Counted from the stretch's first letter, positions 3,812 to 51,759 are shown. The stretch: 64,000 nucleotides of DNA from Acidobacteriota bacterium (GCA_035471785.1 DATIPQ010000017.1:79115-143114); one strand, 5' to 3'. Numbers and translations: made by a program. The notes: generated by a model not told the origin, from the sequence alone.

Positions 3812-4375
3812 CTACGGCTGAGCTGCCAAAAGGCTGAGCATCTCTTCCAGTTGCAGGATGTGGCGGCGCAGGTGTTGGGCGTTGAAGAGCAGCCACTGGT
3901 GGCCGTTGAGCTTGCCGATGGCGGGCAAGGGGTGGACGCGGGTGTGCTGCTTGAAAGGACGCTCCGTCTCCTGGGCCAGGGCCAGGGTGCGGGCTCGGAC
4001 TTCTTCGAAGAGGCGGACAGCCTCCTGGCGCTGCAAGCCTTCCTCGCGGGGGCGCACGTGGGGAGGCGCTTCAGCCTTGCGGCGGCGGGCCGGCAGCAGG
4101 CGGATGATCAGCTCTTCCTTGCCCAGGGTCTCCTGCCACTGCGGATCGGCCTCCCTCTGCAAAGATCTCAGCAACCCCTCCAATACCGCAGTCTCGGCCA
4201 ACACCACATGCTGGGCCAATTGGGCCGGCGTCCAGGAACCTTCCCGGGGACAGCGGTTCCAGTCTTCCTCAGCCACCTGCTGCAAGGCTTTGAGGAAGTC
4301 CTGCCGAGTTTCCTGCAGCAAAGTCATGACCTGCTGATGTTCCTGGGAGCTCATGCGGGGTGAAGGCGTGCTCAT
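3812..4375 (-). CDS. DinB/YfiT-like (DinB_2 superfamily) metal-dependent protein.
   Basis: 187 aa with a four-helix-bundle-like composition. The His-containing segments AQLAQHVVLAE and HLRRHILQLEE are typical of the DinB_2 His triad. Assigned by family resemblance only. Confidence 0.4.
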   Translation of the reverse strand: MSTPSPRMSSQEHQQVMTLLQETRQDFLKALQQVAEEDWNRCPREGSWTPAQLAQHVVLAETAVLEGLLRSLQREADPQWQETLGKEELIIRLLPARRRKAEAPPHVRPREEGLQRQEAVRLFEEVRARTLALAQETERPFKQHTRVHPLPAIGKLNGHQWLLFNAQHLRRHILQLEEMLSLLAAQP

Positions 4376-4481
4376 GACGGTGAATATACAACAAAATCTC
4401 GTCTTGAATAATCGGCGGCCCCTTGCGTAGTCGTTCGCGTAGACCAGGTGCTTGCGATAGACTGAAAAGCGCTGCCGAGTT

Positions 4482-5021
4482 ATGGGACTTTTCGATTTCC
4501 TGAAAAAGAAGAAAGAGCCCGAGGGCCTCGATCCCCTTCATGATCTGAGCCTCGAAAAGATGCAGCCCGGCTACATCGTCGACTACGACATGCGCAGTTG
4601 GAAGGTGACGGCCCGCCACCGCTACGACTTCGACGGTGACACCACTCTGGAGTGGGAGCTGCAGGACGGCGACGAGACCTGGTTTCTGGAACGCGAAGTC
4701 GACGACGAAGCCTACTGGTCGCTGTCGCGCAAGATCCCCCTGGCGGCCATCGACGGCGACGTCCGCAAAACCATCATCGAGCAGGACGACCCGCCCGAGT
4801 GCATCACCTGCAAGGGCCGCACCTATTACCTGGAAGAGTCGGGCGCGGGATATTTCTTCAAGAACGAACAAGGCTCTGGAGAGGGATTCGTCTACTGGTC
4901 TTTTGCCGACGAGAGCGAGAAGCACTACCTGACCATCGAGCAGTGGGGCGAAACCGATTTCGAGGCCTCCGAGGGACATCCGGTGGAAGAGTACCAATTC
5001 ACCAACGTCCTGCCCGGCTGA
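4482..5021 (+). CDS. DUF4178 domain protein.
   Basis: ATG at 4482. The acidic 179-aa protein (DYDMRSWKVTARHRYDFDGDTTLEWELQDGDETWFLEREVDDEAYWSL) resembles the DUF4178 family that co-occurs with PspA, DUF350 and SpeE-like genes. Confidence 0.5.
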   Translation: MGLFDFLKKKKEPEGLDPLHDLSLEKMQPGYIVDYDMRSWKVTARHRYDFDGDTTLEWELQDGDETWFLEREVDDEAYWSLSRKIPLAAIDGDVRKTIIEQDDPPECITCKGRTYYLEESGAGYFFKNEQGSGEGFVYWSFADESEKHYLTIEQWGETDFEASEGHPVEEYQFTNVLPG

Positions 5022-5058
5022 TCCGGGTGCGAATGCGAAGAAGCAGAGGCGCTGTCTT

Positions 5059-5769
5059 ATGAGCAAACGAACCATTCCGGCAATCCTGATCATCCTGGTT
5101 TCGCTGGCCACCTCCTCCTGCCGGCGCGACCCTCTCGACGGTCTTCAGGACCAGCTCAGGGAATACCCGCGATACTCCATCGTCCTGGAAGACATGGACC
5201 GGGAAGGCAACTTCTTCACCGACTACTACCACAAGTACAAGTTGGTGTGGCAGGAGCCCGGAGAGGACGGGCAACTGCGCAGCCGCGAGACCGACTGGGA
5301 GCGGGTCGACAAGAGCACCTTCCGCCGCTATGAAGATTGCCTGGGCATGGCGCTGCGCTCCAAGGGCGGGCAGGGCGACGTGTCTCAGGACTGCTATCCG
5401 GCCGGATTTCAGTACTTAGGCGACCGCCGCTATGGAAGATGGCGGACCGACAGCCGCGGCAACACCTTCTGGGAATTCGCCGGCAAGTACGCCGTGGCAA
5501 GGGCCATCTTCAACTGGGGCGACCGAAACATCGGCCGCGGCGAATGGGACAGCTACCGCACCGCCCGCCAGAACAGCCGTCCCTACTTCGGCAACGGGAC
5601 CTACGGCACCAGCGGCACTCACACCCGGAAGATGCGCCCCAACTTCTTTCAGCGGCGTCAGGCCCGCGAGGCGGCCCGAAAAGCCAGCTTCGGCCAGAAA
5701 GTCCGTTCCCGCGCAGGACGCAGCCGCAGCAGCGGAGCCCGGTCCCGCGGATTCAGCTCCGGCAAGTAG
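5059..5769 (+). CDS. Hypothetical lipoprotein with a basic Arg/Ser-rich C-terminal tail.
   Basis: ATG at 5059. Lipobox LATSSC after a signal peptide (MSKRTIPAILIILVSLATSSC). Trp/Tyr/Arg-rich body and a C-terminal RSRAGRSRSSGARSRGFSSGK tail. Confidence 0.45.
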   Translation: MSKRTIPAILIILVSLATSSCRRDPLDGLQDQLREYPRYSIVLEDMDREGNFFTDYYHKYKLVWQEPGEDGQLRSRETDWERVDKSTFRRYEDCLGMALRSKGGQGDVSQDCYPAGFQYLGDRRYGRWRTDSRGNTFWEFAGKYAVARAIFNWGDRNIGRGEWDSYRTARQNSRPYFGNGTYGTSGTHTRKMRPNFFQRRQAREAARKASFGQKVRSRAGRSRSSGARSRGFSSGK

Positions 5770-5797
5770 CGGCAAAGAGCCGGAAAGGAAGCTCGCC

Positions 5798-6646
5798 ATG
5801 ACCCTCGATCAAGTCCTGAGCGGACTCGTCTACCTCGTTTCGGTCCTCATCCTCTTTCTCATCGGACGCTTCGTCTTCGACAAGATCCTGCACCGCAGCT
5901 TCTCACTGCGCCACGAACTGCTGGAGAAAGACAACGTAGCTCTGGCGCTGGCCGTCTCCGGGTACTACTTCGGACTCGTCATAGCGCTGGGAGGCGTCCT
6001 CTTCGGGCCCTCCAGCGGACTGGTCAATGACCTCATCGACATTTTCGTCTACGGCCTGCTCTCCATCGTCCTCCTCAACTTCTCCATCTGGGTCAACGAC
6101 CGCATCCTTCTCTCCAGCTTTTCCAACGAGAAGGAGATCATTCAAGACCGGAACGCCGGCATGGGCGCGGTGGAGGCGGGCAACCACGTCGCCGTGGGAC
6201 TCATCGTGGCAGGGGCCATTTCAGGGCAGGGCGGCGGCATCGGCACCGCGCTGGCTTTCTGGATCATCGCCCAAGCCGTGCTCATCGTGGGAGCCCGCAT
6301 CTACGACTGGATCACCCCCTACTCGCTGCACGACGAAATCGAGAAAGACAACGTGGCCGTGGGCGTGGCCTTCGCCGGAGTGCTGGTCGCCCTCGGCAAC
6401 ATCGTGGGGGCCGGAATCTACGGCGACTTCTACTCCTGGACCGAGAATCTGACGGTGTTGGGCCAATTCGTCCTCTTCGGCTTCATCCTGCTGCCCGTGG
6501 TGCGCTGGGTGACCGACAAAGTGCTGCTGCCGGGGGCCAGCCTCACCGACGAGCTGGTCAATCAGGAACATCCCAACCTGGGAGCGGGCATCATCGAAGC
6601 CTTTTCCTACATCGCCGCCTCTTTTCTGATCGGCTGGATCGTGTAA
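5798..6646 (+). CDS. Membrane protein with two tandem DUF350 (YjfL-like) domains.
   Basis: ATG at 5798, in frame within the longer track ORF 5432..6646. Two copies of the DUF350 signature: LRHELLEKDNVALALAVSGYYFGLVIALGGV and LHDEIEKDNVAVGVAFAGVLVALGNIVGAG, each followed by TM helices. Confidence 0.6.
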   Translation: MTLDQVLSGLVYLVSVLILFLIGRFVFDKILHRSFSLRHELLEKDNVALALAVSGYYFGLVIALGGVLFGPSSGLVNDLIDIFVYGLLSIVLLNFSIWVNDRILLSSFSNEKEIIQDRNAGMGAVEAGNHVAVGLIVAGAISGQGGGIGTALAFWIIAQAVLIVGARIYDWITPYSLHDEIEKDNVAVGVAFAGVLVALGNIVGAGIYGDFYSWTENLTVLGQFVLFGFILLPVVRWVTDKVLLPGASLTDELVNQEHPNLGAGIIEAFSYIAASFLIGWIV

Positions 6647-6659
6647 GTCCTCTACGTCA

Positions 6660-8198
6660 ATGGCCGCGCGAAACCAACTGCTGAAAGCCTGCATTTTCGC
6701 CACCGGACTGGCGGGCATCGTGGCCGAGTACGTGATGGCTACCCTGGCCAGCTACCTGATGGGCGACTCGGTACGCCAGTGGACGCTCACCGTCTCCCTC
6801 ATGCTCTTCGCCATGGGGGTGGGAAGCCGCCTCAGCCGCCGCTTCCGCCGCCGCCTGCTGGACGCCTTCGTGGCCGTGGAACTGCTGCTCTCGCTGCTCT
6901 GCGCCTCGGCCGCCCTGCTCACCTACACCTTGGCCGTGTGGATCGAGCCCGTCAGCATGGTGGTCTACCCGCTGGCCTTCGCCATCGGACTCCTCATCGG
7001 ACTGGAAATGCCGCTGGCTACCCGCCTCAACGACTACTACGAGGAATTGCGCATCAACATCTCCTCGGTTATGGAGAAGGACTACTACGGCGCCCTCCTG
7101 GGCGGACTCCTCTTCGCCTTCCTGGCCCTGCCTTACCTGGGACTGACCTACACGCCCATACTGCTGGGGACGGTCAACTTCGCCGTGGCGGCGGCGCTCT
7201 TCTGGCAGTTCCGCTCCCAACTGGCCCGCCCCCGCTTTTTCACCCTCGCTTTCGCCGCCCTTACCCTGTTGCTGGCCGCCTTGCTCTTGCTGGCCCGGCC
7301 CATCGTCCTCTACGCGGAACAGAGCCGATACCGCGACCTGGTCGTCTACCAGGAGCAAACGCCCTACCAGAAGATCGTCATCACCCGCTGGAAGAACCAC
7401 CACTGGCTCTATCTCAATGGAGCCGAGCAGTTCAGCAGCTATGACGAAGAGCGATACCACGAACCTCTGGTGCATCCGGCCATGAAAGCCGCTGCCGCCC
7501 GTCATCAGGTGTTGATTCTGGGCGGCGGCGACGGACTGGCCCTGCGCGAAGTCCTCAAGCATCCCGAGGTGGAGGCGGTGGACCTGGTCGACCTCGATCC
7601 GGCCATGACACGGCTGGGCCGCAATCATCCGGTTCTGCTGCAACTCAATCAGGAGGCATTTGAAGATGAGCGGGTGACGGTCGTCAACCAGGACGCCTAC
7701 GCTTTTCTCGACGAAAGCTCGCAGATTTACGACGTCATCATCGTCGATTTGCCCGACCCCAAGTCGGTGGAACTGGCCCGCCTCTACAGCCTCGAGTTCT
7801 ACAGCTTGGCCTCGCGTCAGTTGGCTCAGGGAGGCGTTCTGGTGACTCAAGCCACCAGTCCGCTCTTCGCCCGCCGCGCCTTTTTGTGCATTTACAAGAC
7901 CATGGGCGAGGCCGGACTCTCCACCGCCGCCATGCACAACCACGTCCCCACCATGGGAGAGTGGGGCTGGGTAGTGGGAATCAAGGGACCGCCGCTGAGC
8001 AGCGAGCAGGTGAGGGAGCGCTTGCTGGAGCTGGATTTCCAGGACTTGTCCACGCGCTACCTCGACCGCGACGCCCTCCACACGCTACTCTATTTCGGCA
8101 AGGACACCTTCCGCGACCTGGAGGCAATCGAGGTCAACCGCCAGATGTCCTTACGCTTGCAACGCTACTATCAGGGGGGCGATTGGGACCTCTATTGA
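6660..8198 (+). CDS. Polyamine aminopropyltransferase (spermidine synthase-like) fused to an N-terminal multi-TM domain.
   Basis: N-terminal ~220 aa form about six hydrophobic helices. The C-terminal part has spermidine-synthase motifs: VLILGGGDGLALREVLKHPEVEAVDLVDLDPAM and YDVIIVDLPDP (AdoMet/dcAdoMet-binding fold). Confidence 0.75.
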   Translation: MAARNQLLKACIFATGLAGIVAEYVMATLASYLMGDSVRQWTLTVSLMLFAMGVGSRLSRRFRRRLLDAFVAVELLLSLLCASAALLTYTLAVWIEPVSMVVYPLAFAIGLLIGLEMPLATRLNDYYEELRINISSVMEKDYYGALLGGLLFAFLALPYLGLTYTPILLGTVNFAVAAALFWQFRSQLARPRFFTLAFAALTLLLAALLLLARPIVLYAEQSRYRDLVVYQEQTPYQKIVITRWKNHHWLYLNGAEQFSSYDEERYHEPLVHPAMKAAAARHQVLILGGGDGLALREVLKHPEVEAVDLVDLDPAMTRLGRNHPVLLQLNQEAFEDERVTVVNQDAYAFLDESSQIYDVIIVDLPDPKSVELARLYSLEFYSLASRQLAQGGVLVTQATSPLFARRAFLCIYKTMGEAGLSTAAMHNHVPTMGEWGWVVGIKGPPLSSEQVRERLLELDFQDLSTRYLDRDALHTLLYFGKDTFRDLEAIEVNRQMSLRLQRYYQGGDWDLY

Positions 8199-8287
8199 GT
8201 TCCAGGTCCCTTTTCGAACGAGGCTTTGAATATGTCAGACAAGGCTGCGTACTAGGCAGTGTCAACTGAACATGGAGGCGAGATTCG

Positions 8288-8686
8288 ATGTCCGACAACA
8301 TGGACTTGGTAAGAAATTACGTGCTCGATATGGACCTGGATGTCGTCCACGAGGACGAAAACGAAGAAGTCATCGTGGTGCGGGACGACGACAACGGCAT
8401 CCACAACCTGATTCTCGACTGCGAACCCCCCATCGTCATCTTGGAGCAGTTCATCATGCCGGTGCCGTCCCAGCCGGGCGATCTTTTCGAGCGCCTTCTC
8501 AAAATGAACAGCACCTTGGTGCACGGAGCCTTCGTGCTCGATGATGACGGCAAGAGGGTTTACTTTCGCGACACCTTGCAGTTGGAGAATTTGGACCACA
8601 ACGAGCTGGAGGCTTCCATCAGCGCTCTTTCGCTGGCCATGGCCGAGCATGCCGACGAACTCTTGCGTTACGCCAAATCGAACTAA
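8288..8686 (+). CDS. YbjN/YjfI-like (DUF2170-type) small acidic protein.
   Basis: ATG at 8288 preceded by GGAGG. 132 aa, acidic, with a two-lobed pattern (NLILDCEPPIVILEQFIM ... GAFVLDDDGKRVYFRDTLQLENLD) typical of the YbjN/T3SS-chaperone-like fold. Sits immediately upstream of a PspA homologue, as yjfI-yjfJ do in E. coli. Confidence 0.45.
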   Translation: MSDNMDLVRNYVLDMDLDVVHEDENEEVIVVRDDDNGIHNLILDCEPPIVILEQFIMPVPSQPGDLFERLLKMNSTLVHGAFVLDDDGKRVYFRDTLQLENLDHNELEASISALSLAMAEHADELLRYAKSN

Positions 8687-8722
8687 GCTGTCAGCCCCAG
8701 CCAGGATCATTAGGAGACCAAC

Positions 8723-9427
8723 ATGAGCATCTTTCGAAGAATCTTCAGAGTGGCCCAATCGGAAGCCCATTCGGTGGTGGACCAACTGGAGGATCCCATC
8801 AAGATGACCGAACAAGGGTTGCGCGACCTCAAGGACGACTTGCGCGATGCATTGGCCAGCCTGGCCCAGGTGAAATCATTGGCCATCCGCCTCAAGAAGG
8901 AATCGGAGGACGCCAAAAAGCGTGCCGCCGACTACGAGCGCAAGGCCATGATGCTGCTCAAGAAGATGCAGTCCGGCGAGCTGGAAGCCGAGCGGGCCGA
9001 ATCGCTGGCCCAGGAAGCTCTCACCAAGAAAGAGGAGAGCGACATGAGGTCCAAGCAACAAATGGGCGAGCACGAGACCCAGCAGAAGATGGCCGACCAA
9101 CTGCAGGCCAAAATCGAGAAGCTGAAGCGCTCCATCGCCCGCTACGAAAACGAGCTGACGACACTCAAAGCCCGGGCCAAGACGGCCGAGTCGATGCGCA
9201 AGATCAACCAGCAGATGTCTTCCATCGATTCCTCAGGGACCATCGCCATGCTGGAAAAGATGAAGGCCAAGGTTCAGGAAGAAGAAACCTTGGCCGAGGC
9301 TTACGGCGAAATCGCCGGACAGGAAACCAGCGTGGACGATGAGATCGAAGGCGCCCTGGGGACTCAGGCCAGCGCTAAAGCCGCCGATTCTCTGGCCGAT
9401 TTGAAGAAGAAGATGGGCATTCAATAA
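8723..9427 (+). CDS. PspA/IM30 family protein (YjfJ-like).
   Basis: MSIFRRIFRVAQSEAHSVVDQLEDPIKMTEQGLRDLKDDL is the canonical PspA/IM30 N-terminus. The protein is a long coiled coil of 234 aa. Confidence 0.8.
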   Translation: MSIFRRIFRVAQSEAHSVVDQLEDPIKMTEQGLRDLKDDLRDALASLAQVKSLAIRLKKESEDAKKRAADYERKAMMLLKKMQSGELEAERAESLAQEALTKKEESDMRSKQQMGEHETQQKMADQLQAKIEKLKRSIARYENELTTLKARAKTAESMRKINQQMSSIDSSGTIAMLEKMKAKVQEEETLAEAYGEIAGQETSVDDEIEGALGTQASAKAADSLADLKKKMGIQ

Positions 9428-9687
9428 GCTACCAGCAAAGGAATGGCCATGATCTTCTAGAGCGCCCGCGGCCCCTGGGGATGGGTGCTGGCTTGGGGAT
9501 CTTTGCCGGCTGTTCGTGTCGACTGATGCGCTTCAAGTGACCCTCGGGTCTTGATCTCGAACCAGCGGTAGGCTCCCGGCTTCAGATTCGCCCCTCCCGG
9601 GGGGTTCTTAGCGCATTCTCTGCAGTCTAGTCTCTCCAGTGCGGCCGCCGACAGGCTGCCACTAACAACCGCATTGGAGGTCAAGAC

Positions 9688-11250
9688 ATGTACGTTCCAT
9701 CCGATTTCCCCCGATTCGTTTCGCGCTTTCTTCTTTTCTGCGTGATTGTGGCGGGTTCTTTGCTCTGGGCCAGATGCGTCCTGATGACGGCCAACGGCCA
9801 GGCTTCGGGTCCTCCCCAAAGCAAGCTCTCGCCCTTTCTCCAGCGCAAGCTGGAGGCAGGCGGCGCGACCGCCCGACTCCCTGTAATCGTCGAAGTGCGC
9901 GGGCGGCAGGCTTGGAACCGCCTGCCCCGCTCGCGCTCGGCTCGCATGATCGGCCGCTCAAGCTCTCTCAGCGCCAGGCTCAGCCTTGAGGAATTGCGCC
10001 TGTGGGACCGTCACCCCGAGGTGGTGCGGATCTCCTACGACGCGCCGCTGCGGACTTTCAGCTCAGCGTCCCGCTTGGCGCCGCCTTCTCCGGCCAGCCT
10101 GTCGGAGCCCTTCCTCCAATCCCTGGGCGCAGCCGGCCTGGCCTCCCAAGGACGCGACGGAGCCGGCGTGGGAGTGGCGGTCTTCGACTCCGGCATCGCC
10201 GACCTTCCTGATCTGGAGGGCAAGGTGGTGCATCGCGTCGACTTCAGCGATGGGGCGGGGCAGCAATCCGGCTGGCGGCGCGCCGGATTCGACCCTTACG
10301 GCCATGGCACCCACGTGGCCGGAATCCTGGCCGCTTCGGGCTTGAGCGCCGACGTTCGGGGCATAGCCCCGGGCATTCACCTCATCGACGTGCGGGTGAT
10401 CGACGCCGCTGGACGCGGACGGGCCAGCGGCCTCATCGCAGCCATCGAATGGGTGATCGACAACCGCCGCCGCTTCAACATTCGGGTGGCCAACCTTTCC
10501 CTGGGTCACCTTCCCCTGCAGTCGCCGCACACCGATCCCCTGGCCCGGGCCGCCGCCCGCATGGCAGCAGCGGGAATCGTGACGGTGGCCTCGGCGGGCA
10601 ACTTCGGACGCACGCCGCGTGGCGACCGCCTGTGGGGACTGATCGCTTCTCCCGCGCACCATCCCGACCTCATCACGGTTTCGCCTCTCAACACCCGCGG
10701 TTCGGCTCACATCGATGACGACCTGGCCACCACCTATGGCTCTCGCGGACCGGCCCTCTGGGACGGCGGACTCAAACCCGACCTGACCGCTCCCGGAAAC
10801 CGCATCCCTTCGCTGGCGGCGCCGGGCAGCAGCCTGCAGCGTCAGCGTTGGCGCAGCGGGCAGGATCCCCGCACTCTCGAACTCAGCGGCGCCAGCATGG
10901 CGGTGCCTTACGTGGCGGGCGCCGCCGCGCTGCTCTTGCAGGCGGCTCCCGAGATGCAGCCCTCCATGCTCAAGCGCATCCTGACGCTCTCCTCCCGCCG
11001 CCTGGCGCGTCCCCATCTGCTCGAGCAAGGCAGCGGACTCCCCCATCTCCCTTCGGCCTTGAGGCTGGCCGAATCGCTGAACGGACTGCCCGTCTCGGCC
11101 CTGCTCCTCACCCCGTCACAGACCCCCGCCGCAAGCGGCGCCATCTGGACCGACGGAGCGATATGGACCGATGGGGCGATTTGGACCGACGGCGCCATCT
11201 GGACCGACGGCGCCATTTGGACAGACAGCACCACTGAAGACCCCGAATAA
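9688..11250 (+). CDS. Secreted subtilisin-like serine protease (peptidase S8) with a C-terminal (GAIWTD)x5 repeat.
   Basis: Catalytic triad contexts: Asp in VAVFDSGI, His in HGTHVAGI, Ser in SGASMAVPYVAGAAALL. N-terminal hydrophobic signal or anchor. GGAGGT precedes the ATG at 9688. Confidence 0.8.
   Translation: MYVPSDFPRFVSRFLLFCVIVAGSLLWARCVLMTANGQASGPPQSKLSPFLQRKLEAGGATARLPVIVEVRGRQAWNRLPRSRSARMIGRSSSLSARLSLEELRLWDRHPEVVRISYDAPLRTFSSASRLAPPSPASLSEPFLQSLGAAGLASQGRDGAGVGVAVFDSGIADLPDLEGKVVHRVDFSDGAGQQSGWRRAGFDPYGHGTHVAGILAASGLSADVRGIAPGIHLIDVRVIDAAGRGRASGLIAAIEWVIDNRRRFNIRVANLSLGHLPLQSPHTDPLARAAARMAAAGIVTVASAGNFGRTPRGDRLWGLIASPAHHPDLITVSPLNTRGSAHIDDDLATTYGSRGPALWDGGLKPDLTAPGNRIPSLAAPGSSLQRQRWRSGQDPRTLELSGASMAVPYVAGAAALLLQAAPEMQPSMLKRILTLSSRRLARPHLLEQGSGLPHLPSALRLAESLNGLPVSALLLTPSQTPAASGAIWTDGAIWTDGAIWTDGAIWTDGAIWTDSTTEDPE
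11137..11226 (+). repeat. In-frame tandem repeat, 5 x 18 nt, encoding GAIWTD five times at the C-terminus of the S8 protease.
   Basis: ggcgccatctggaccgac / ggagcgatatggaccgat / ggggcgatttggaccgac / ggcgccatctggaccgac / ggcgccatttggacagac. The copies differ only at synonymous third positions. Confidence 0.85.
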
Positions 11251-11602: not shown

Positions 11603-11626
11603 CAGCCTGATTGTTCTCTGCCGACC

Positions 11627-12430
11627 CTACCGCTGGGGCGGTTTGGTGGTGAAGTCGGCGGTGGCCGTTCCGCCGTCGGTAACGGTCACTTCCTGGCTTT
11701 GCGTTCCGAACACCTCGTGCCACAGTTCCACCGTGTAGGTTCCGGCGGGAAGTCCTGCGATCTCATAGCTCCCGTCGGCTCCGGTGACGGCGAAGTAGGG
11801 ATGTTCGAAGACCTGGACCCAGGCCTTCATCCAGGGGTGGACATCGCATTTGACCTCGAAGGGGGCTTCAGGCCTGGAGAAGGTCTTGTCCGTTTCGGTG
11901 ACCGAGGCCGGCATGGGCACGTTGAACTCGCGGTTGACGTTGGGCAAAGCGTGCACGTTGTGCAGGATGCCGTCCGAATTATGGAAGCGCAGCGTCTGGT
12001 TGGCCATCAGGCCCACTACGCGGGGCACGTACTTGCATCCCTTCTGGTCGATGATGACGGGATCGGAAGGAGTGGCGTGGCTGCCCTCGGGAAGTCCGCC
12101 GGTCACGCGCACGATGGCATTGGCCAAAGTCTTTCCTTCGCCCAGCATCAGCATTTCGTTCATGGGCGGGGTCTCGTGCATCTCTTGGCACTTGGGGTCG
12201 GCTTCCATGCTCAGAGGACGCGGCGTGGGCGCGGTGCCCTCGAACACGACGGTCCCCGAAATCTTGGCAGTGCCGCTGGGCGCGGTCTGGGCCGTGCCGG
12301 AGGCCTCGTCCCCGCCTCCGCCGGCCGAGTCGCCTTCTTCGCCGCCTCCGCCCCCGCCTCCGCAGGCGGCGGCGAAAACCACCAACGTCAGCATCATCAT
12401 CAAGGCCAGTAATCCTCTCAATCTGCTCAT
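11627..12430 (-). CDS. Lipoprotein carrying an amicyanin/plastocyanin-like type-1 copper (cupredoxin) domain.
   Basis: Reverse ATG at 12428-12430 (MSRLRGLLALMMMLTLVVFAAAC). Lipobox FAAAC followed by a Gly-rich linker. Cupredoxin signatures: the upstream His ligand context RFHNSDGILHNVH and the C-terminal ligand loop KCDVHPWMKAWVQV (C-x2-H-x2-M, as in amicyanin CTPHPFM). Carboxypeptidase-regulatory-like strands (ISGTVVFEG ... GSYEIAGLPAGTYTVELW) flank the cupredoxin. The track ORF extends to 12556. Confidence 0.55.
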   Translation of the reverse strand: MSRLRGLLALMMMLTLVVFAAACGGGGGGGEEGDSAGGGGDEASGTAQTAPSGTAKISGTVVFEGTAPTPRPLSMEADPKCQEMHETPPMNEMLMLGEGKTLANAIVRVTGGLPEGSHATPSDPVIIDQKGCKYVPRVVGLMANQTLRFHNSDGILHNVHALPNVNREFNVPMPASVTETDKTFSRPEAPFEVKCDVHPWMKAWVQVFEHPYFAVTGADGSYEIAGLPAGTYTVELWHEVFGTQSQEVTVTDGGTATADFTTKPPQR

Positions 12431-12614
12431 GAAATCAATCCCTCCATTCAAAATCCAATTATCGCCCGCAGGGGACGCCGAATCGCTCTTCATTGCGATC
12501 CCGAATCGGGAACTCCCCGCAACGCCCCCGCTTCTTACGTGGGTCGGCAAGTGCATCGGATTGTATCCCGCAGCCCCTACAGGGTCAAGAATCCCCTATT
12601 TTTGGGACAGCCTG

Positions 12615-12643
12615 TTGGAAAGGTGCGGCGCTGCTGCTATACT
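12615..12643 (+). promoter_or_regulatory. Sigma-70-type promoter candidate for the cytochrome oxidase operon.
   Basis: TTGGAA (12615-12620), a 17-nt spacer, then TATACT (12638-12643), about 70 nt upstream of the coxA ATG. Confidence 0.4.
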
Positions 12644-12713
12644 GCGTCCCGTCGCGCGCCGGTTCGACGGCGAGCGGGACTAAAACGCAACCGTCAAGGG
12701 GGGATCTTTGCCT

Positions 12714-14513
12714 ATGGGGGGCAACCACGACCATACCAGGACCGACCATCCCGAGGAATTCGACCACCCGGAAGAGCATGGGCACCATGAGCATCACGAA
12801 CTGGGCTTTTGGCGCAAGTACGTCTTCTCGGTCGATCACAAGGTCATCGGAATCCAGTACTCCATCACCGCTTTGTTGTTCCTGTTTTTCGGCTTCTGCC
12901 TGATGATGATCATGCGCTGGCAGCTGGCCTTTCCCGAGCAGCCGCTGCCCTTTCTGGGAGCCCTGCTGGGAGACGGGATGCCGGGCGGGGTCATGCTGCC
13001 CGACTTCTACAACGAGTTGGGGGCCATGCATGGCACCATCATGGTCTTCCTGGGCGTCGTCCCGCTGGCGGTCGGCGGATTCGGCAATTTCGTGGTGCCC
13101 CTGCAGATCGGGGCCCCCGACATGGCCTTCCCCCGCCTCAACATGTTCAGCTACCACGTCTACTGGATCGGCGGCGTGGTCATGCTGGCCAGCTTCTTCC
13201 TTCCCGGAGGAGCCGCCAACTCGGGCTGGACGGCCTATCCGCCGCTCTCGGTCATCGCCACCATCGGACAGACCTTCTGGCTGCTGGGAATGGTCTTCCT
13301 CATCACCTCTTCGCTCTTCGGAGCCATCAACTTCATCACCACCATCATTCAACTGCGGGCTCCCGGGCTCAGCTTCATGCGTCTGCCTTTCTTCGTCTGG
13401 GCCCAATTCGTTACGGCCTTCCTGCTGCTGCTGGCTTTCCCGCCGCTGGAAGGGGCCGCCATCCTGCAGTTGATGGACCGTCTGGCCGATACCAGCTTCT
13501 TCATGCCTTCGGGCCTGGTGGTGAGCGGACAGGTGCTGGAGCTGAGCGGCGGCGGCAGCCCCATTCTGTGGCAGCATCTGTTCTGGTTCCTGGCCCACCC
13601 CGAGGTTTACGTCCTCATTCTTCCGGCCATGGGAATCGTGTCCGAGATCATCGCCAACAACACGCGCAAGCCCCTGTGGGGCTACAAGTCGCTGGTCTAC
13701 GCGCTCGTCTTCCTGGGATTCATGAGCTTCATCGTGTGGGCCCACCACATGTTCATCACTGGGATGGGAACGGCCATGGCCGCCTTCTTCCAGACCACGA
13801 CCATGATCATCTCTATCCCCTCGGTGATCATTTTGACGGCCCTGCTCTTATCGCTGTGGGGGGCGTCGATCCGCTTCAACACCCCCATGCTCTTCGCCCT
13901 GGCCTTCTTGCCCATGTTCGGCATCGGCGGACTGACCGGACTGCCTTTGGGACTGACGGCGACCGACATTCCGCTGCACGATACCTACTACGTCATCGGG
14001 CACTTCCACTATGTGGTGGCGCCCGGCACCATCTTCGCCCTCATGGCGGGGGTCTACTACTGGTTCCCCAAAGCCACCGGACGCCGCATGAACGAGTTCT
14101 TGGGCAAGCTTCACTTTTGGCCCTCGCTGATCTTCATGAACGGAATCTTCTTCCCCATGCTCATCCAGGGGATGGCGGGCGTTTCCAGGCGTCTTTACGA
14201 CGGCGGCGCCATTTACGACTTCGCCCAGGACACGCTCTACCTCAACCAGGTCATGTCTTACTCGGCCTGGGGACTGGGACTTGTCCAGATCCCCTTTATT
14301 TTCAACTTCTTCTGGAGCATCTGGAAAGGCGCCAAGGTGGGACGCAACCCCTGGCAAGCCACCACCTTGGAATGGCTGGCTCCCTCGCCGCCGCCTCACG
14401 GCAACTTCGAGACCGTGCCTGAGGTCTACCGCGGGCCCTATGAGTACAACGTCCCCGGATCGGGCGACGACGGCTACATTCCCCAGTACAAGTCCAAGGG
14501 AGGTGGAGAATGA
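12714..14513 (+). CDS. ctaD: Cytochrome c oxidase subunit I.
   Basis: Heme-copper oxidase subunit I. Conserved His ligands and 12 TM helices are evident (WFFGHPEVY-like LFWFLAHPEVYVLILPAMG, HHMF, HFHYV). The ATG at 12714 follows AAGGGGGGAT. The track uses TTG at 12708. Confidence 0.9.
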   Translation: MGGNHDHTRTDHPEEFDHPEEHGHHEHHELGFWRKYVFSVDHKVIGIQYSITALLFLFFGFCLMMIMRWQLAFPEQPLPFLGALLGDGMPGGVMLPDFYNELGAMHGTIMVFLGVVPLAVGGFGNFVVPLQIGAPDMAFPRLNMFSYHVYWIGGVVMLASFFLPGGAANSGWTAYPPLSVIATIGQTFWLLGMVFLITSSLFGAINFITTIIQLRAPGLSFMRLPFFVWAQFVTAFLLLLAFPPLEGAAILQLMDRLADTSFFMPSGLVVSGQVLELSGGGSPILWQHLFWFLAHPEVYVLILPAMGIVSEIIANNTRKPLWGYKSLVYALVFLGFMSFIVWAHHMFITGMGTAMAAFFQTTTMIISIPSVIILTALLLSLWGASIRFNTPMLFALAFLPMFGIGGLTGLPLGLTATDIPLHDTYYVIGHFHYVVAPGTIFALMAGVYYWFPKATGRRMNEFLGKLHFWPSLIFMNGIFFPMLIQGMAGVSRRLYDGGAIYDFAQDTLYLNQVMSYSAWGLGLVQIPFIFNFFWSIWKGAKVGRNPWQATTLEWLAPSPPPHGNFETVPEVYRGPYEYNVPGSGDDGYIPQYKSKGGGE

Positions 14514-40913: not shown

Positions 40914-41702
40914 TCAGGATTCCATCCAAAACCAGCGTCTTGCGCGGGGACCGAAGGTGAGGCCGAAGCGCTGCATGCCCATGTCACGCGCCACGGTCGC
41001 CGCCTCCTCGGGCGAATCGGTGAGATGGATCAGCTCCAGGTCGCGCTCCGAGATGGTGCGTTCAGTGACGAACTTTTCCCGCAGCAGGTCCATGAGGGGT
41101 TGCCAGTAGTCGTTTCCCATCAAAATGATGGGAAACTGCCGGATCTTGCCGGTCTGAATCAAGGTGGCGGTTTCGAAGATCTCGTCCATGGTGCCGAAGC
41201 CTCCGGGAAGGACGACGAAGGCATAGGAGTATTTGACCAGCATGACCTTGCGCACGAAGAAATAGCGGAAGTCGATGGACTCGTCGAGGTAGGGGTTGGG
41301 CTTTTGTTCCCTGGGCAGTTCGATGTTGCAGCCGATGCTGCGTCCGTCCACGTCCTTGGCCCCTCGATTGGCGGCCTCCATGATGCCTGGCCCGCCTCCC
41401 GTCATGACGGTGAAACCGGCTTGGGCCAGGTGGCGGCCGGCAGCCCGTCCCAGTTGGTAGTAGCGGTGGTTCTCCGAGAAGCGGGCTGATCCGAAGACGG
41501 TGACGCAGGGACCCACGAAGTGAAGGGTGCGGAATCCTTTCAGGAACTCCCAACTGATGCGGAAGAGGCGCAGCAACTCGCTGCCACGCCGCTGGGGGCC
41601 CCGAAGGAACTCGATTTCGTCCTTGGCGGGACCGTGGCGAGAATTCGCCTGGTCTTCATCGGTGGACGGCGGGTGCGTTCGGTCCTGTGAGCTTTGCGGC
41701 AT
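40914..41702 (-). CDS. LOG family protein (TIGR00730; putative nucleotide 5'-monophosphate nucleosidase / cytokinin-activating-like).
   Basis: VTVFGSARF...GGGPGIMEAANRGA...VVLPGGFGTMDEIFE are the canonical LOG motifs (PGGxGTxxE). Confidence 0.75.
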   Translation of the reverse strand: MPQSSQDRTHPPSTDEDQANSRHGPAKDEIEFLRGPQRRGSELLRLFRISWEFLKGFRTLHFVGPCVTVFGSARFSENHRYYQLGRAAGRHLAQAGFTVMTGGGPGIMEAANRGAKDVDGRSIGCNIELPREQKPNPYLDESIDFRYFFVRKVMLVKYSYAFVVLPGGFGTMDEIFETATLIQTGKIRQFPIILMGNDYWQPLMDLLREKFVTERTISERDLELIHLTDSPEEAATVARDMGMQRFGLTFGPRARRWFWMES

Positions 41703-49617: not shown

Positions 49618-51759
49618 GTGCTTCAGCAACAGCAGCGAGGAATCGTGTTGACAAGCCCGATTGCGGGATCTATTTTGCTGAATGTCGTGGTTAGTTCAGG
49701 ACAACCCCCTAAGCAACGCAATTCGTCCTTGCCGAAACGTATCGGAAAGTATCAGATTGTTGAAATGCTGGGGAAAGGGGGGATGGGGACGGTCTACAAG
49801 GGCTACGATTCTTCCTTGCAGAGGTTTGCGGCCATTAAGGTAATGGAGGAGATACACCGCCGCGACGAGGACCTCCGGGAGCGTTTCTTCCGCGAGGCTC
49901 GGGCTGTCGCCCGGCTCGATCACGAGAACATTGTTGCCATCTATGAACTCGACGAAGATCCCAAACTTCCTTTCATCGCCATGGAGTACGTGGAGGGCAT
50001 GGACCTCCATCAGCTTTTGAAAAGGGGGCGCCTTCCTCTCCTGCGGGACAGCTTGCGCATGGTCATCGAGGTCTGTCGGGGACTCGGCCACGCCCACGGG
50101 CGTGATCTGGTTCATCGCGACATCAAGCCCTCTAACATCCGGCTGGGGCCAAATCGGAAGGTCAAGCTTCTCGATTTCGGGATCGCCCGTCTGCACGAGG
50201 AGCCCGACACAAAGCGATTGACTCAGACAGGCCAGATCGTGGGAACGCCCGACTACATGTCCCCGGAGCAGGCCGCCGGGGAAAAAGAGGTCGATCTTCG
50301 ATCCGACATCTTCAGCTTGGGTTCGGTGCTCTATGAGCTTCTCGCCAGCAAGCCTCCCTTCTCTTCCAGCAAGGTCTCCACGACTTTGGCCCGTATCATC
50401 TCGGCATCTCATCCTCCGCTGCAGACCATCTATCCCGGCTTTCCTTGCGAGATGGAACGGATCGTCGAACGCGCTTTAGCCAAATCACCCAATAACCGAT
50501 ATCAGAGCTGCGCCGAGATGGAAGCGGACCTGAGCGCGTTTCTCAAGAACCTGCCCGACCATTACAAGAAGACCTTGGCAGTGGTGCGCAAATTGGAAGA
50601 GCAGTTGCGCGTGACGCAGACGGGGGTGGAGGGTGATGATCTCGACCTGCGGCCTCGGCGCGAAGGCGTGGAAGACTTGGGAATTCTATTGGATTATGGA
50701 CGCGACTTGCGGCGAGCATTGGCAGCCTTGGATACCGAGCCGGCCCAGTATAGGCGCCAATATCGAGCCGCCCACAAAGCCTGGCTGCCGCGGTGGGCCT
50801 GGATAACACTGTCGGCAATACTGTTGGCAGCGGTCGGTGCGACCTGGTATTTAGCCAGTGACGGCTCGGGCAGCGACAGTCCTGGAGGCACAGGGCAGGC
50901 GGCGGCAGAGGAGCAGAGGGGCGGCATCCCAGGTTCGGATTCAGGCAGCCAAGACGGGCGGTCACCGCCGCCGGTCACTGGAGCCGCTGGAGGCTCCGCC
51001 GACTTTCCCGCCACCATTACGTTGGGAGGGACGGAGATGGTGCTGGTGCCGGCGGGGGAGTTCCTCATGGGGAGCTCTTTCGGAGAGGGCTGGTTGGATC
51101 AGGATGGCTTGGAGAACGAATCCCCTCAGCGCCGCCTTTTTCTGAAAGCCTTTTACATTGACAGGTTCGAGGTTTCCAACCGGCGCTTTCTGGAATTCGT
51201 GCGTGATACGGGAAGGACGCAACCTCTAGGCCCCGCATTCGATCCGGATTATTTTTATACCAAGCCGGATTATCCGGCGGTGGGAGCGGATTGGGGTTCG
51301 GCCCGGGAATTCTGCCTCTGGAAGGGGCAACGGCTTCCCAATGAAGCCGAGTGGGAGAAGGCCGCCCGCGGTCCCGAGGGACGACCCTATCCCTGGGGTG
51401 AGGCGTTTGAGGAACACTTGGCCAACCTGGGCGGCCCGGACGATTATCCCGAGCTGGCTCCCTGCGGCGTTTTTCCGCGCGACCGCAGCCCTTATGGGGT
51501 CATGGACATGGCCGGCAATGTATCGGAGTGGGTGGCCGACGATTACCGGCTTTATCCGGGCAATCCCGGCGCCATCCCTGCTGAGCAGCGCGGACACAAG
51601 GTGATCAAGGGAGGATTCTTCGGTATAAACCGCTTCAGGGATAAGCTGGCCAGGGCCGCCTACCGGCTGCCGATGAAGCCGGAGGCCCAGTTGCCCGCCA
51701 TCGGATTCCGGTGCGCTGCAGACGCAAAGGCCGCCCTCGGCCTTAGCCCAAGTCAGTGA
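49618..51759 (+). CDS. Receptor-type Ser/Thr protein kinase with a single TM helix and a C-terminal (periplasmic) FGE-sulfatase (formylglycine-generating-enzyme-like) domain.
   Basis: Kinase subdomains: LGKGGMGTVYKG, AIKVM, HRDIKPSNIRL, DFGIA, GTPDYMSPE. TM helix AWITLSAILLAAVGATWYLA. C-terminus MVLVPAGEFLMGS...RFEVSNRRFLEFV...DYPAVGADWGSAREFCLWKG.RLPNEAEWEKAARG...YPWGE...MAGNVSEWVAD matches FGE-sulfatase. The true start is probably downstream of 49618 (GTG at 49687 or TTG at 49729) given the internal promoter-like element. Confidence 0.8.
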   Translation: MLQQQQRGIVLTSPIAGSILLNVVVSSGQPPKQRNSSLPKRIGKYQIVEMLGKGGMGTVYKGYDSSLQRFAAIKVMEEIHRRDEDLRERFFREARAVARLDHENIVAIYELDEDPKLPFIAMEYVEGMDLHQLLKRGRLPLLRDSLRMVIEVCRGLGHAHGRDLVHRDIKPSNIRLGPNRKVKLLDFGIARLHEEPDTKRLTQTGQIVGTPDYMSPEQAAGEKEVDLRSDIFSLGSVLYELLASKPPFSSSKVSTTLARIISASHPPLQTIYPGFPCEMERIVERALAKSPNNRYQSCAEMEADLSAFLKNLPDHYKKTLAVVRKLEEQLRVTQTGVEGDDLDLRPRREGVEDLGILLDYGRDLRRALAALDTEPAQYRRQYRAAHKAWLPRWAWITLSAILLAAVGATWYLASDGSGSDSPGGTGQAAAEEQRGGIPGSDSGSQDGRSPPPVTGAAGGSADFPATITLGGTEMVLVPAGEFLMGSSFGEGWLDQDGLENESPQRRLFLKAFYIDRFEVSNRRFLEFVRDTGRTQPLGPAFDPDYFYTKPDYPAVGADWGSAREFCLWKGQRLPNEAEWEKAARGPEGRPYPWGEAFEEHLANLGGPDDYPELAPCGVFPRDRSPYGVMDMAGNVSEWVADDYRLYPGNPGAIPAEQRGHKVIKGGFFGINRFRDKLARAAYRLPMKPEAQLPAIGFRCAADAKAALGLSPSQ
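49648..49676 (+). promoter_or_regulatory. Sigma-70-type promoter candidate (TTGACA-N17-TATTTT) inside the 5' end of the track ORF for the kinase.
   Basis: TTGACA at 49648-49653, 17-nt spacer agcccgattgcgggatc, TATTTT at 49671-49676. Confidence 0.35.

Follow-up and report, generated by a model that had tools for sequence, protein, structure and literature searches.

Six co-directional genes lie on the + strand at positions 4482–9427 of a 64,000-nucleotide stretch of DNA (here called the window) from an Acidobacteriota metagenome-assembled genome (MAG; GCA_035471785.1, DATIPQ010000017.1:79115-143114). They encode, in order, a DUF4178 protein, a lipoprotein, a tandem DUF350 membrane protein, a membrane-bound fusion of the aminopropyltransferase SpeE, a CesT/Tir-YbjN-superfamily chaperone-like protein, and PspA/IM30 (Table 1). 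With a probability of about 0.72, we interpret the locus as an Acidobacteriota example of the operon class that combines a CesT/Tir-PspA pair with a membrane spermidine synthase, and as being built from two modules.

Genes were called by open reading frame (ORF) reading and profile searches. This gives six genes where the original prediction, which was made from the sequence alone, had seven. The domain assignments of that prediction held in profile searches, including those at 4482..5021, 5798..6646, and 8288..8686. Intergenic spacing along the run is 37, 28, 13, 89, and 36 bp, and the spacing and ribosome-binding sites of the six genes are operon-like. No extra ORF was found in the intergenic gaps or 3′ of the PspA gene, and no plausible ORF for a terminal ribbon-helix-helix (RHH) regulator lies between the PspA end and the S8 peptidase start (9427–9688).

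Table 1. Features of the six-gene run and its upstream border (TM, transmembrane; MFS, major facilitator superfamily; dcAdoMet, decarboxylated S-adenosylmethionine).
Feature	Coordinates	Strand	Remarks
DUF4178 protein, 179 aa	4482..5021	+	PF13785 87 bits, residues 28-169
Lipoprotein, 236 aa	5059..5769	+	Signal peptide, lipobox Cys21; without Pfam family
Tandem DUF350 (YjfL-family) membrane protein, 282 aa	5798..6646	+	PF03994 193 bits, two stretches
SpeE-fusion gene, complete	6660-8198	+	Spermine_synth 135 bits; NF002956 596 bits
SpeE-fusion membrane domain, residues 1-212	6660..7295	+	Six-helix MFS-half bundle and seventh TM helix
SpeE-fusion aminopropyltransferase (PABS/SpeE) domain, residues 222-512	7323..8198	+	dcAdoMet and catalytic site intact
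CesT/Tir-YbjN-superfamily chaperone-like protein, 132 aa	8288..8686	+	PF22550 CesT_Tir_1 172 bits, full length; YbjN 37 bits
PspA/IM30 (bacterial ESCRT-III), 234 aa	8723..9427	+	PspA_IM30, PF04012, 138 bits
Hairpin GGGACCT-N12-AGGTCCC then TTTTCG	8185..8216	+	Spans SpeE stop codon, between the two modules
Upstream intergenic region, presumed promoter region	4376..4481	+	Shared with divergent DinB_2 gene
DinB_2 gene, divergent	3812-4375	-	Adjoins upstream intergenic region

Conservation of the gene set was assessed from an alignment of the lipoprotein family. Relatives were found in 371 species-representative genomes, and the best 80 loci were annotated with hidden Markov models (HMMs) of the six window proteins. 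Gene presence was counted in the 54 species-level loci with sufficient flanking DNA. The lipoprotein gene lies next to the DUF350 gene in 84/84 of the best loci of the lipoprotein family and in 54/54 of those with sufficient flank. DUF350 is present in 54 of the 54 loci, SpeE in 53, DUF4178 in 40, CesT in 39, and PspA in 39. The order DUF4178-lipoprotein-DUF350-SpeE-CesT-PspA is the joint commonest complete arrangement among them. The gene set is carried by Acidobacteriota, Calditrichota, KSB1, Bacteroidota, Planctomycetota, Desulfobacterota, Binatota, Gemmatimonadota, and Nitrospinota, and the six-gene arrangement is far beyond chance. The original prediction had depended on conserved synteny, which was found in the 54 full-context loci across phyla.

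The operon divides into lipoprotein-DUF350-SpeE, the envelope module, and DUF4178-CesT-PspA, the cytoplasmic module, because 13/54 loci carry lipoprotein-DUF350-SpeE only and DUF4178 accompanies every CesT-PspA pair (39/39 loci). In several lineages, CesT-PspA-DUF4178 forms a separate convergent unit. In Vicinamibacterales-type loci, SpeE is on the opposite strand and still within ~7 kb.

Additional genes recur in the related loci. The stretch between SpeE/DUF350 and CesT (for example 11618-13028 of locus L010) often encodes a K+ channel that has two TM segments and an RCK domain (43/81) and a ~120-aa DnaJ-domain protein (35/81). In Vicinamibacterales loci, the recurring extras are an amine oxidase and a ~381-aa protein without annotation. 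Upstream of DUF4178, L004, L007, L008, L011, L013, and L017 (Calditrichia and related) carry a second pspA gene, and some of these loci add a Band-7 protein and a PspF-like sigma-54 activator without a receiver domain, so that some relatives carry two PspA systems side by side. Three JGI metagenome contigs (L001-L003, 7454-10846) have a truncated cluster, in which DUF4178-lipoprotein-DUF350 is followed by a glycerophosphodiester phosphodiesterase (GDPD) and a CDP-alcohol phosphatidyltransferase in the place of SpeE; this gene content may indicate a connection with phospholipid head-group metabolism.

Operons of this kind were described by Ravi et al. in 2024 as the 'second major group' of CesT/Tir-PspA operons, with six to seven genes (PMC11237479). 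The parts listed are the CesT/Tir-PspA dyad, a 7TM and spermine-synthase fusion, an 8TM DUF350 protein, a Ctha_1186-type lipoprotein, and a beta-rich cytoplasmic DUF4178 protein (PMC11237479). Shewanella oneidensis AAN56744-AAN56747 is the example given, and an RHH regulator gene is terminal 'in some cases' (PMC11237479). The window operon matches in the CesT-PspA dyad, the membrane SpeE fusion, the 8TM DUF350 protein, and DUF4178. It differs in having no terminal RHH regulator and in its Acidobacteriota host, and the Shewanella and Chloroherpeton prototypes were compared by description. The lipoprotein probably corresponds to the 'Ctha_1186 domain' lipoprotein described by Ravi et al., to which it was likened by description, lipobox, and operon position; its family is also represented in this operon in Chloroherpetonaceae (L038). 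By gene content, the window operon is assigned to this second group, a kind already known as a prediction. The original prediction had likewise described the link between PspA and polyamines as known from comparative genomics and uncharacterized, which agrees with Ravi et al. 2024 (PMC11237479). The two-module split, the invariant SpeE residues, and the half-MFS domain with a seventh helix and a proposed outward placement of the enzyme go beyond that description.

The original prediction had instead taken the cluster for the E. coli yjfI-yjfL neighborhood in expanded form. An orthologous, expanded yjfIJKLMC operon would account for the shared PspA and DUF350 genes, and in each cluster pspA or its homologue directly follows a CesT-superfamily gene, with a lipoprotein and a polyamine-related enzyme encoded as well. 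The DUF350 family matches YjfL (HMM 29 bits, hhalign 85%), which is a single 4-TM DUF350 unit that is duplicated in the window protein. No signal was obtained for DUF4178 against YjfK, the lipoprotein against YjfM, or the CesT-like protein against YjfI (phmmer, hmmsearch, and hhalign, probability <=0.3%). DUF2170, DUF1190, and DUF2491 have no Pfam matches among the cluster proteins, and no similarity to YjfC was detected. DUF4178 as YjfK (DUF2491) and the lipoprotein as YjfM (DUF1190) were thus rejected at the sensitivity used, with no profile signal. YjfI is a DUF2170 protein, and the CesT-like protein has no DUF2170 match at E<=10; of its earlier description as an acidic YbjN/YjfI-like protein, the acidity and the YbjN relationship (37 bits) stand and the YjfI relationship does not. 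YjfC is an ATP-grasp peptide-spermidine ligase unrelated to SpeE, whereas the window enzyme is an aminopropyltransferase. The label 'PspA(YjfJ)' also finds little support: the window PspA is homologous to both proteins, and its family profile aligns better with E. coli PspA (hhalign 98.9%, score 113) than with YjfJ (89.7%, score 47). Ravi et al. list yjfIJKLMC as a third group, separate from the second (PMC11237479). Orthology of the whole operon is therefore quite improbable, and yjfIJKLMC appears to be a thematic analogue of the window operon in which only PspA and DUF350 are detectably homologous.

The SpeE fusion scores 596 bits against NF002956, the NCBI model for the long membrane-bound form (cut-off 472), and passes the NCBI 'fused MFS/spermidine synthase' model (57, cut-off 40). 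The enzyme family comprises >4800 clusters at 90% identity. Cofactor and catalytic residues are Gln257, Tyr266-His267-Glu268, GGGDG with Asp291, Asp311, Asp313, Asp345, and Asp363-x-x-Asp366-Pro367. These residues align with the 1UIR/3ANX motifs, are invariant in 39 diverse homologues, and are >90% conserved in 79 cluster-linked sequences. Retention of the dcAdoMet-binding residues had been left as a check by the original prediction, and all were invariant in the 39 homologues. Among enzymes of this fold, the acidic residue in GxG(D/E)G distinguishes the dcAdoMet aminopropyltransferases from the methyltransferases (PMC10349129), and the fusion is assigned to the dcAdoMet type because its GGGDG motif has the acidic Asp291. 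It most likely makes a polyamine or another aminopropylated product at the membrane, because it retains every residue for dcAdoMet binding and aminopropyl transfer. Bit scores are 128 for the Thermus enzyme, which has broad specificity, 117 for the thermospermine synthase ACL5, and 85 for E. coli SpeE. The Thermus/thermospermine branch is nearer than E. coli SpeE, and putrescine therefore cannot be assumed to be the amine substrate. Unlike the window enzyme, the solved enzymes T. thermophilus SpeE (1UIR/3ANX), ACL5 (6BQ2), and E. coli SpeE (3O4F) are soluble proteins that lack a membrane domain.

The fusion could also be a membrane-anchored housekeeping spermidine or polyamine synthase whose neighbors are only loosely related in function. 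The NCBI equivalog name at this score, polyamine aminopropyltransferase, is consistent with such a role, as are the canonical active site and the fact that no second SpeE was seen in the window. This role is nevertheless improbable. SpeE accompanies lipoprotein-DUF350 in 53/54 loci from at least nine phyla while the flanks vary, conservation of the membrane domain, which has a transporter fold, equals that of the enzyme, and SpeE of the Vicinamibacterales type has switched strand yet stays close to the other genes.

The membrane domain of the SpeE fusion has seven hydrophobic segments. The original prediction was right about the fusion and had given about six helices for its N-terminal domain. 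By fold comparison, helices 1-6 correspond to an MFS half. No Pfam MFS match was found for the domain by sequence, and only one six-helix half is present by fold. MFS transporters have twelve TM helices in two halves, whereas the window protein has one half and an extra helix, and transport would require dimerization. Residues 1-212 are conserved as well as the catalytic domain, and some of their polar residues, among them Glu23, Glu74, and Glu116, are buried and invariant. The seventh TM helix (residues 191-211) is very hydrophobic and poorly conserved. The AlphaFold model is confident, with a predicted local distance difference test (pLDDT) score of 85. A search with the membrane domain returned it in the N-terminal position of ~500-580-aa proteins, or in shorter possible fragments, in 1490 clusters at 50% identity. 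None of the best 150 matches pointed to another fusion partner. Probably as a homodimer, the half-MFS domain would handle a cationic substrate or product.

Loop charges were counted in 79 SpeE fusions. Lysine plus arginine (K+R) averages 1.3 in the N-terminus, 2.6 in loop 2-3, 2.75 in loop 4-5, and 3.65 in loop 6-7, against 0.08, 0.30, and 0.19 in loops 1-2, 3-4, and 5-6. An MFS half has both ends in the cytoplasm. Because of the K+R bias, the cytoplasmic ends of an MFS half, and a seventh helix that leads the chain out, the modeled topology somewhat favors a catalytic domain that faces the outside of the cytoplasm. The opposite placement follows from the AlphaFold 2 model if residues 134-183, one continuous helix by DSSP, cross the membrane once; there would then be six crossings and a cytoplasmic enzyme. 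The pLDDT of this model is <50 at residues 128-139. The segment past TM7 also has 3.4 K+R, which speaks against an outward domain.

A fungal protein has a similar layout. The N-terminal histidine methyltransferase NHMT (AN4663) is resident in the endoplasmic reticulum (ER), modifies secreted lytic polysaccharide monooxygenases (LPMOs), and loses its activity without its membrane domain (PMC10349129). Like the window protein, it has a 7TM domain (residues 1-215) followed by a spermidine-synthase-fold domain, and the match is one of layout and proportions only. In NHMT, Ile replaces the acidic residue of GxG(D/E)G and S-adenosylmethionine is the methyl donor, whereas the window protein has the invariant Asp291.

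An outward-facing enzyme would allow extracytoplasmic aminopropylation. Under this alternative, a periplasmic SpeE domain would receive dcAdoMet via the dimerized half-MFS domain and, instead of producing spermidine in bulk in the cytoplasm, modify an envelope acceptor, and PspA would respond to the membrane state that results. The acceptor could be polyamine bound at the surface, the amine of a lipid head group, or the lipoprotein itself, for example at its invariant C-terminal Lys, which has a putrescine-like side chain. The loop bias in the 79 sequences, the match of six helices to an MFS half that leaves the very hydrophobic seventh helix to lead the chain out, and the lipoprotein gene, an invariant neighbor of the module whose product is likewise extracytoplasmic, are consistent with this scheme. 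So are the layout, ER residence, and membrane-domain dependence of NHMT (PMC10349129) and the mention by Ravi et al. of possible 'aminopropylation of other substrates' (PMC11237479). The continuous helix in the model and the positive segment past TM7 argue against it, the closest enzymes of solved structure are polyamine synthases of the ordinary soluble kind, and the bacterial and fungal membrane domains were likened by layout. We know of no bacterial exporter of dcAdoMet, which also counts against the scheme. On this evidence, extracytoplasmic aminopropylation as a whole is possible and rather unlikely. A more specific version is also doubtful; here the half-MFS homodimer would export dcAdoMet or present a membrane or envelope amine to a periplasmic site, the basic tail of the lipoprotein would be a candidate acceptor along with its terminal Lys, a surface polyamine, and a lipid head group, and DUF350 would relay the state of the reaction to DUF4178-CesT-PspA.

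The lipobox Cys21 of the lipoprotein, the envelope module's first gene product, is invariant in 18/18 aligned homologues. In sequence, the lipoprotein is 100% identical to a hypothetical protein from an Acidobacteriota MAG. The lipoprotein is basic, with 45 K+R and 27 aspartate plus glutamate (D+E) residues (net charge +18), and its model has no match to solved folds in PDB libraries. The conserved C-terminal tail (5640-5766) is Arg/Ser-rich and ends in an invariant Gly-Lys. The DUF350 protein has eight hydrophobic segments in two DUF350 units by family hydropathy. At family level, loops 1-2, 3-4, 5-6, and 7-8 have 1.5-3.9 K+R and the remaining loops <=0.13. An N-out/C-out topology is predicted, with the conserved EKDN/QDRN loops in the cytoplasm. 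DUF350 is a plausible link between the modules because these loops are predicted to face the cytoplasm. Its start at 5798 has an AGGA-type ribosome-binding site 28 bp past the lipoprotein stop. A longer ORF from 5432 (122 extra codons) was rejected, as it overlaps the lipoprotein gene in another frame. Position 5798 is the likely start because homologues begin directly past the lipoprotein stop. The upstream extension (5432-5797) translates to a low-complexity stretch rich in Ala, Pro, Ser, and Thr.

Two proteins of the cytoplasmic module are very acidic. DUF4178 has 41 D+E and 18 K+R (charge -23) and is predicted to be cytoplasmic because it has no signal peptide or TM segment. The peptide MGLFDxFKKK...DPLxDLxLxKL at its N-terminus (4482-4565, 28 codons) lies outside the Pfam domain and is conserved in 61 members. 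We take its first residues to resemble the start of the Vipp1/PspA membrane-binding helix (MGLFDR...), and the peptide could bind a membrane or a chaperone. The CesT-like protein has 29 D+E and 9 K+R (charge -20). Its gene is directly upstream of PspA in all related loci with both genes, and in the window the two are 36 bp apart on the same strand. PspA has an N-terminal amphipathic segment. Its C-terminal peptide DSLAxLKKKMGI (9389-9424) is conserved.

A comparable dyad is encoded by the bac operon of P. aeruginosa, where a CesT/YbjN-fold protein is also encoded directly upstream of a PspA homologue (PMC10948618). BacA (PA3732) is a YjfI-family protein with a type III secretion system chaperone fold, and when it is lost, the levels of its operon partners rise (PMC10948618). 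Binding of BacA to the PspA homologue BacB (PA3731) was cited by the authors as unpublished evidence (PMC10948618). Crystallographic and mutant data exist for this dyad alone among those of its type, and they suggest a chaperone or negative-regulator role. The bac operon differs in that BacA is a DUF2170 protein, it has a putative sigma-54 site, and it has no spermidine synthase, DUF350, DUF4178, or lipoprotein of the window type.

The presence of PspA_IM30 raises the question of a classical phage-shock operon controlled by PspF and sigma-54, and some Calditrichia relatives do have a PspF-like activator and a second pspA upstream. In the window, this reading is largely refuted and is very unlikely to hold. 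PspA falls below the equivalog cut-offs for PspA (TIGR02977, 52 vs 243) and LiaH (37 vs 380), no sigma-54 GG-N10-GC element was found in the intergenic DNA upstream of 4482, and no PspF-like gene was found among the profiled ORFs of the 64-kb window. Other transcription signals were at chance level. A sigma-70-like match (TATACA-16-AATAAT, 4385-4412) fits 9/12 positions, with 1 found vs 1.2 expected in shuffles. Terminator-like matches are at chance level, and the region 3′ of PspA and the SpeE-CesT spacer fold no better than shuffles. The hairpin at 8185-8216 was considered as a terminator or attenuator between the modules and is a weak candidate, since at -13.4 kcal/mol (z = -0.89) it is no better than shuffles.

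Several observations weigh against the proposed two-module operon. Neither motif scanning nor folding against shuffles gave a convincing promoter or terminator at the operon. No gene for the S-adenosylmethionine decarboxylase SpeD was found among the scanned window ORFs or the conserved neighbors; the window profile scan covered part of the ORFs of >=90 aa, and a few large ORFs fell outside it. The envelope module occurs with no PspA within 8 kb in 13/54 loci, and the enzyme module thus has no strict need for PspA. No K+ channel, DnaJ protein, amine oxidase, or PspF was found in the 64-kb window (a few large ORFs unprofiled). With the K+ channel and DnaJ protein absent, the window operon is a reduced, minimal six-gene version. 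Within the searchable literature, Ravi et al. 2024 is the only paper that mentions DUF4178.

Genes around the cluster are functionally unrelated and include uvrC, the divergent DinB_2 gene, an S8 peptidase gene, and cytochrome oxidase genes. Among the related loci compared, the uvrC, DinB, and S8 peptidase flanks recur only in the closest relative (L006). The S8 peptidase gene (9688-11250, +) contains an 18-bp tandem repeat at 11136-11226 (5.1 copies, 83% identity) that encodes (GAIWTD)x5 at the subtilase C-terminus. Elsewhere in the window, a LOG/SLOG-family protein is encoded at 40914-41702 on the - strand. Its Pfam family name is 'Possible lysine decarboxylase', which we take to be misleading, and the protein was left out of the polyamine gene count. 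A Ser/Thr kinase fused to an FGE-sulfatase domain is encoded at 49618-51759 on the + strand.

Taken with these reservations, the two-module operon suggests a mechanism in which local polyamine synthesis would be coupled to envelope-stress sensing, a reasonable interpretation of the gene content. The lipoprotein would sit on the outer face of the inner membrane, beside the 8-TM DUF350 protein and the membrane aminopropyltransferase, to form the envelope module. This module would perform or sense aminopropyl transfer at the membrane, with both the product and the side of the membrane presumed, and a half-MFS homodimer would handle one cationic substrate or product. Contact with the cytoplasmic module would most plausibly be made by the cytoplasm-facing loops of DUF350. 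By comparison with BacA, the acidic CesT-like chaperone would bind PspA, and possibly DUF4178, and hold it ready. PspA would then assemble on the inner leaflet, which is an established function of its family, and stabilize or remodel the stressed membrane. Within this mechanism we infer the topology, which partners touch, what the enzyme makes, and which way the signal runs.

Membrane repair by PspA/ESCRT-III proteins occurs in all domains of life. To our knowledge, the coupling of PspA to events across the membrane is poorly understood beyond PspBC of E. coli and Lia of Bacillus, and dcAdoMet is otherwise known only for polyamine synthesis. The operon class described here is widespread and would couple PspA to an enzyme that uses dcAdoMet. 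The window adds a phylum-level example and a minimal six-gene version suited to reconstitution, and it adds no new kind of system. If plain spermidine is made at the membrane, the operon would be a tidy and unsurprising stress module. If the enzyme faces the periplasm or the acceptor is not a polyamine, it would represent new biochemistry, and extracytoplasmic aminopropylation, if true, would be without precedent in bacteria and would make the enzyme the bacterial counterpart of fungal NHMT.

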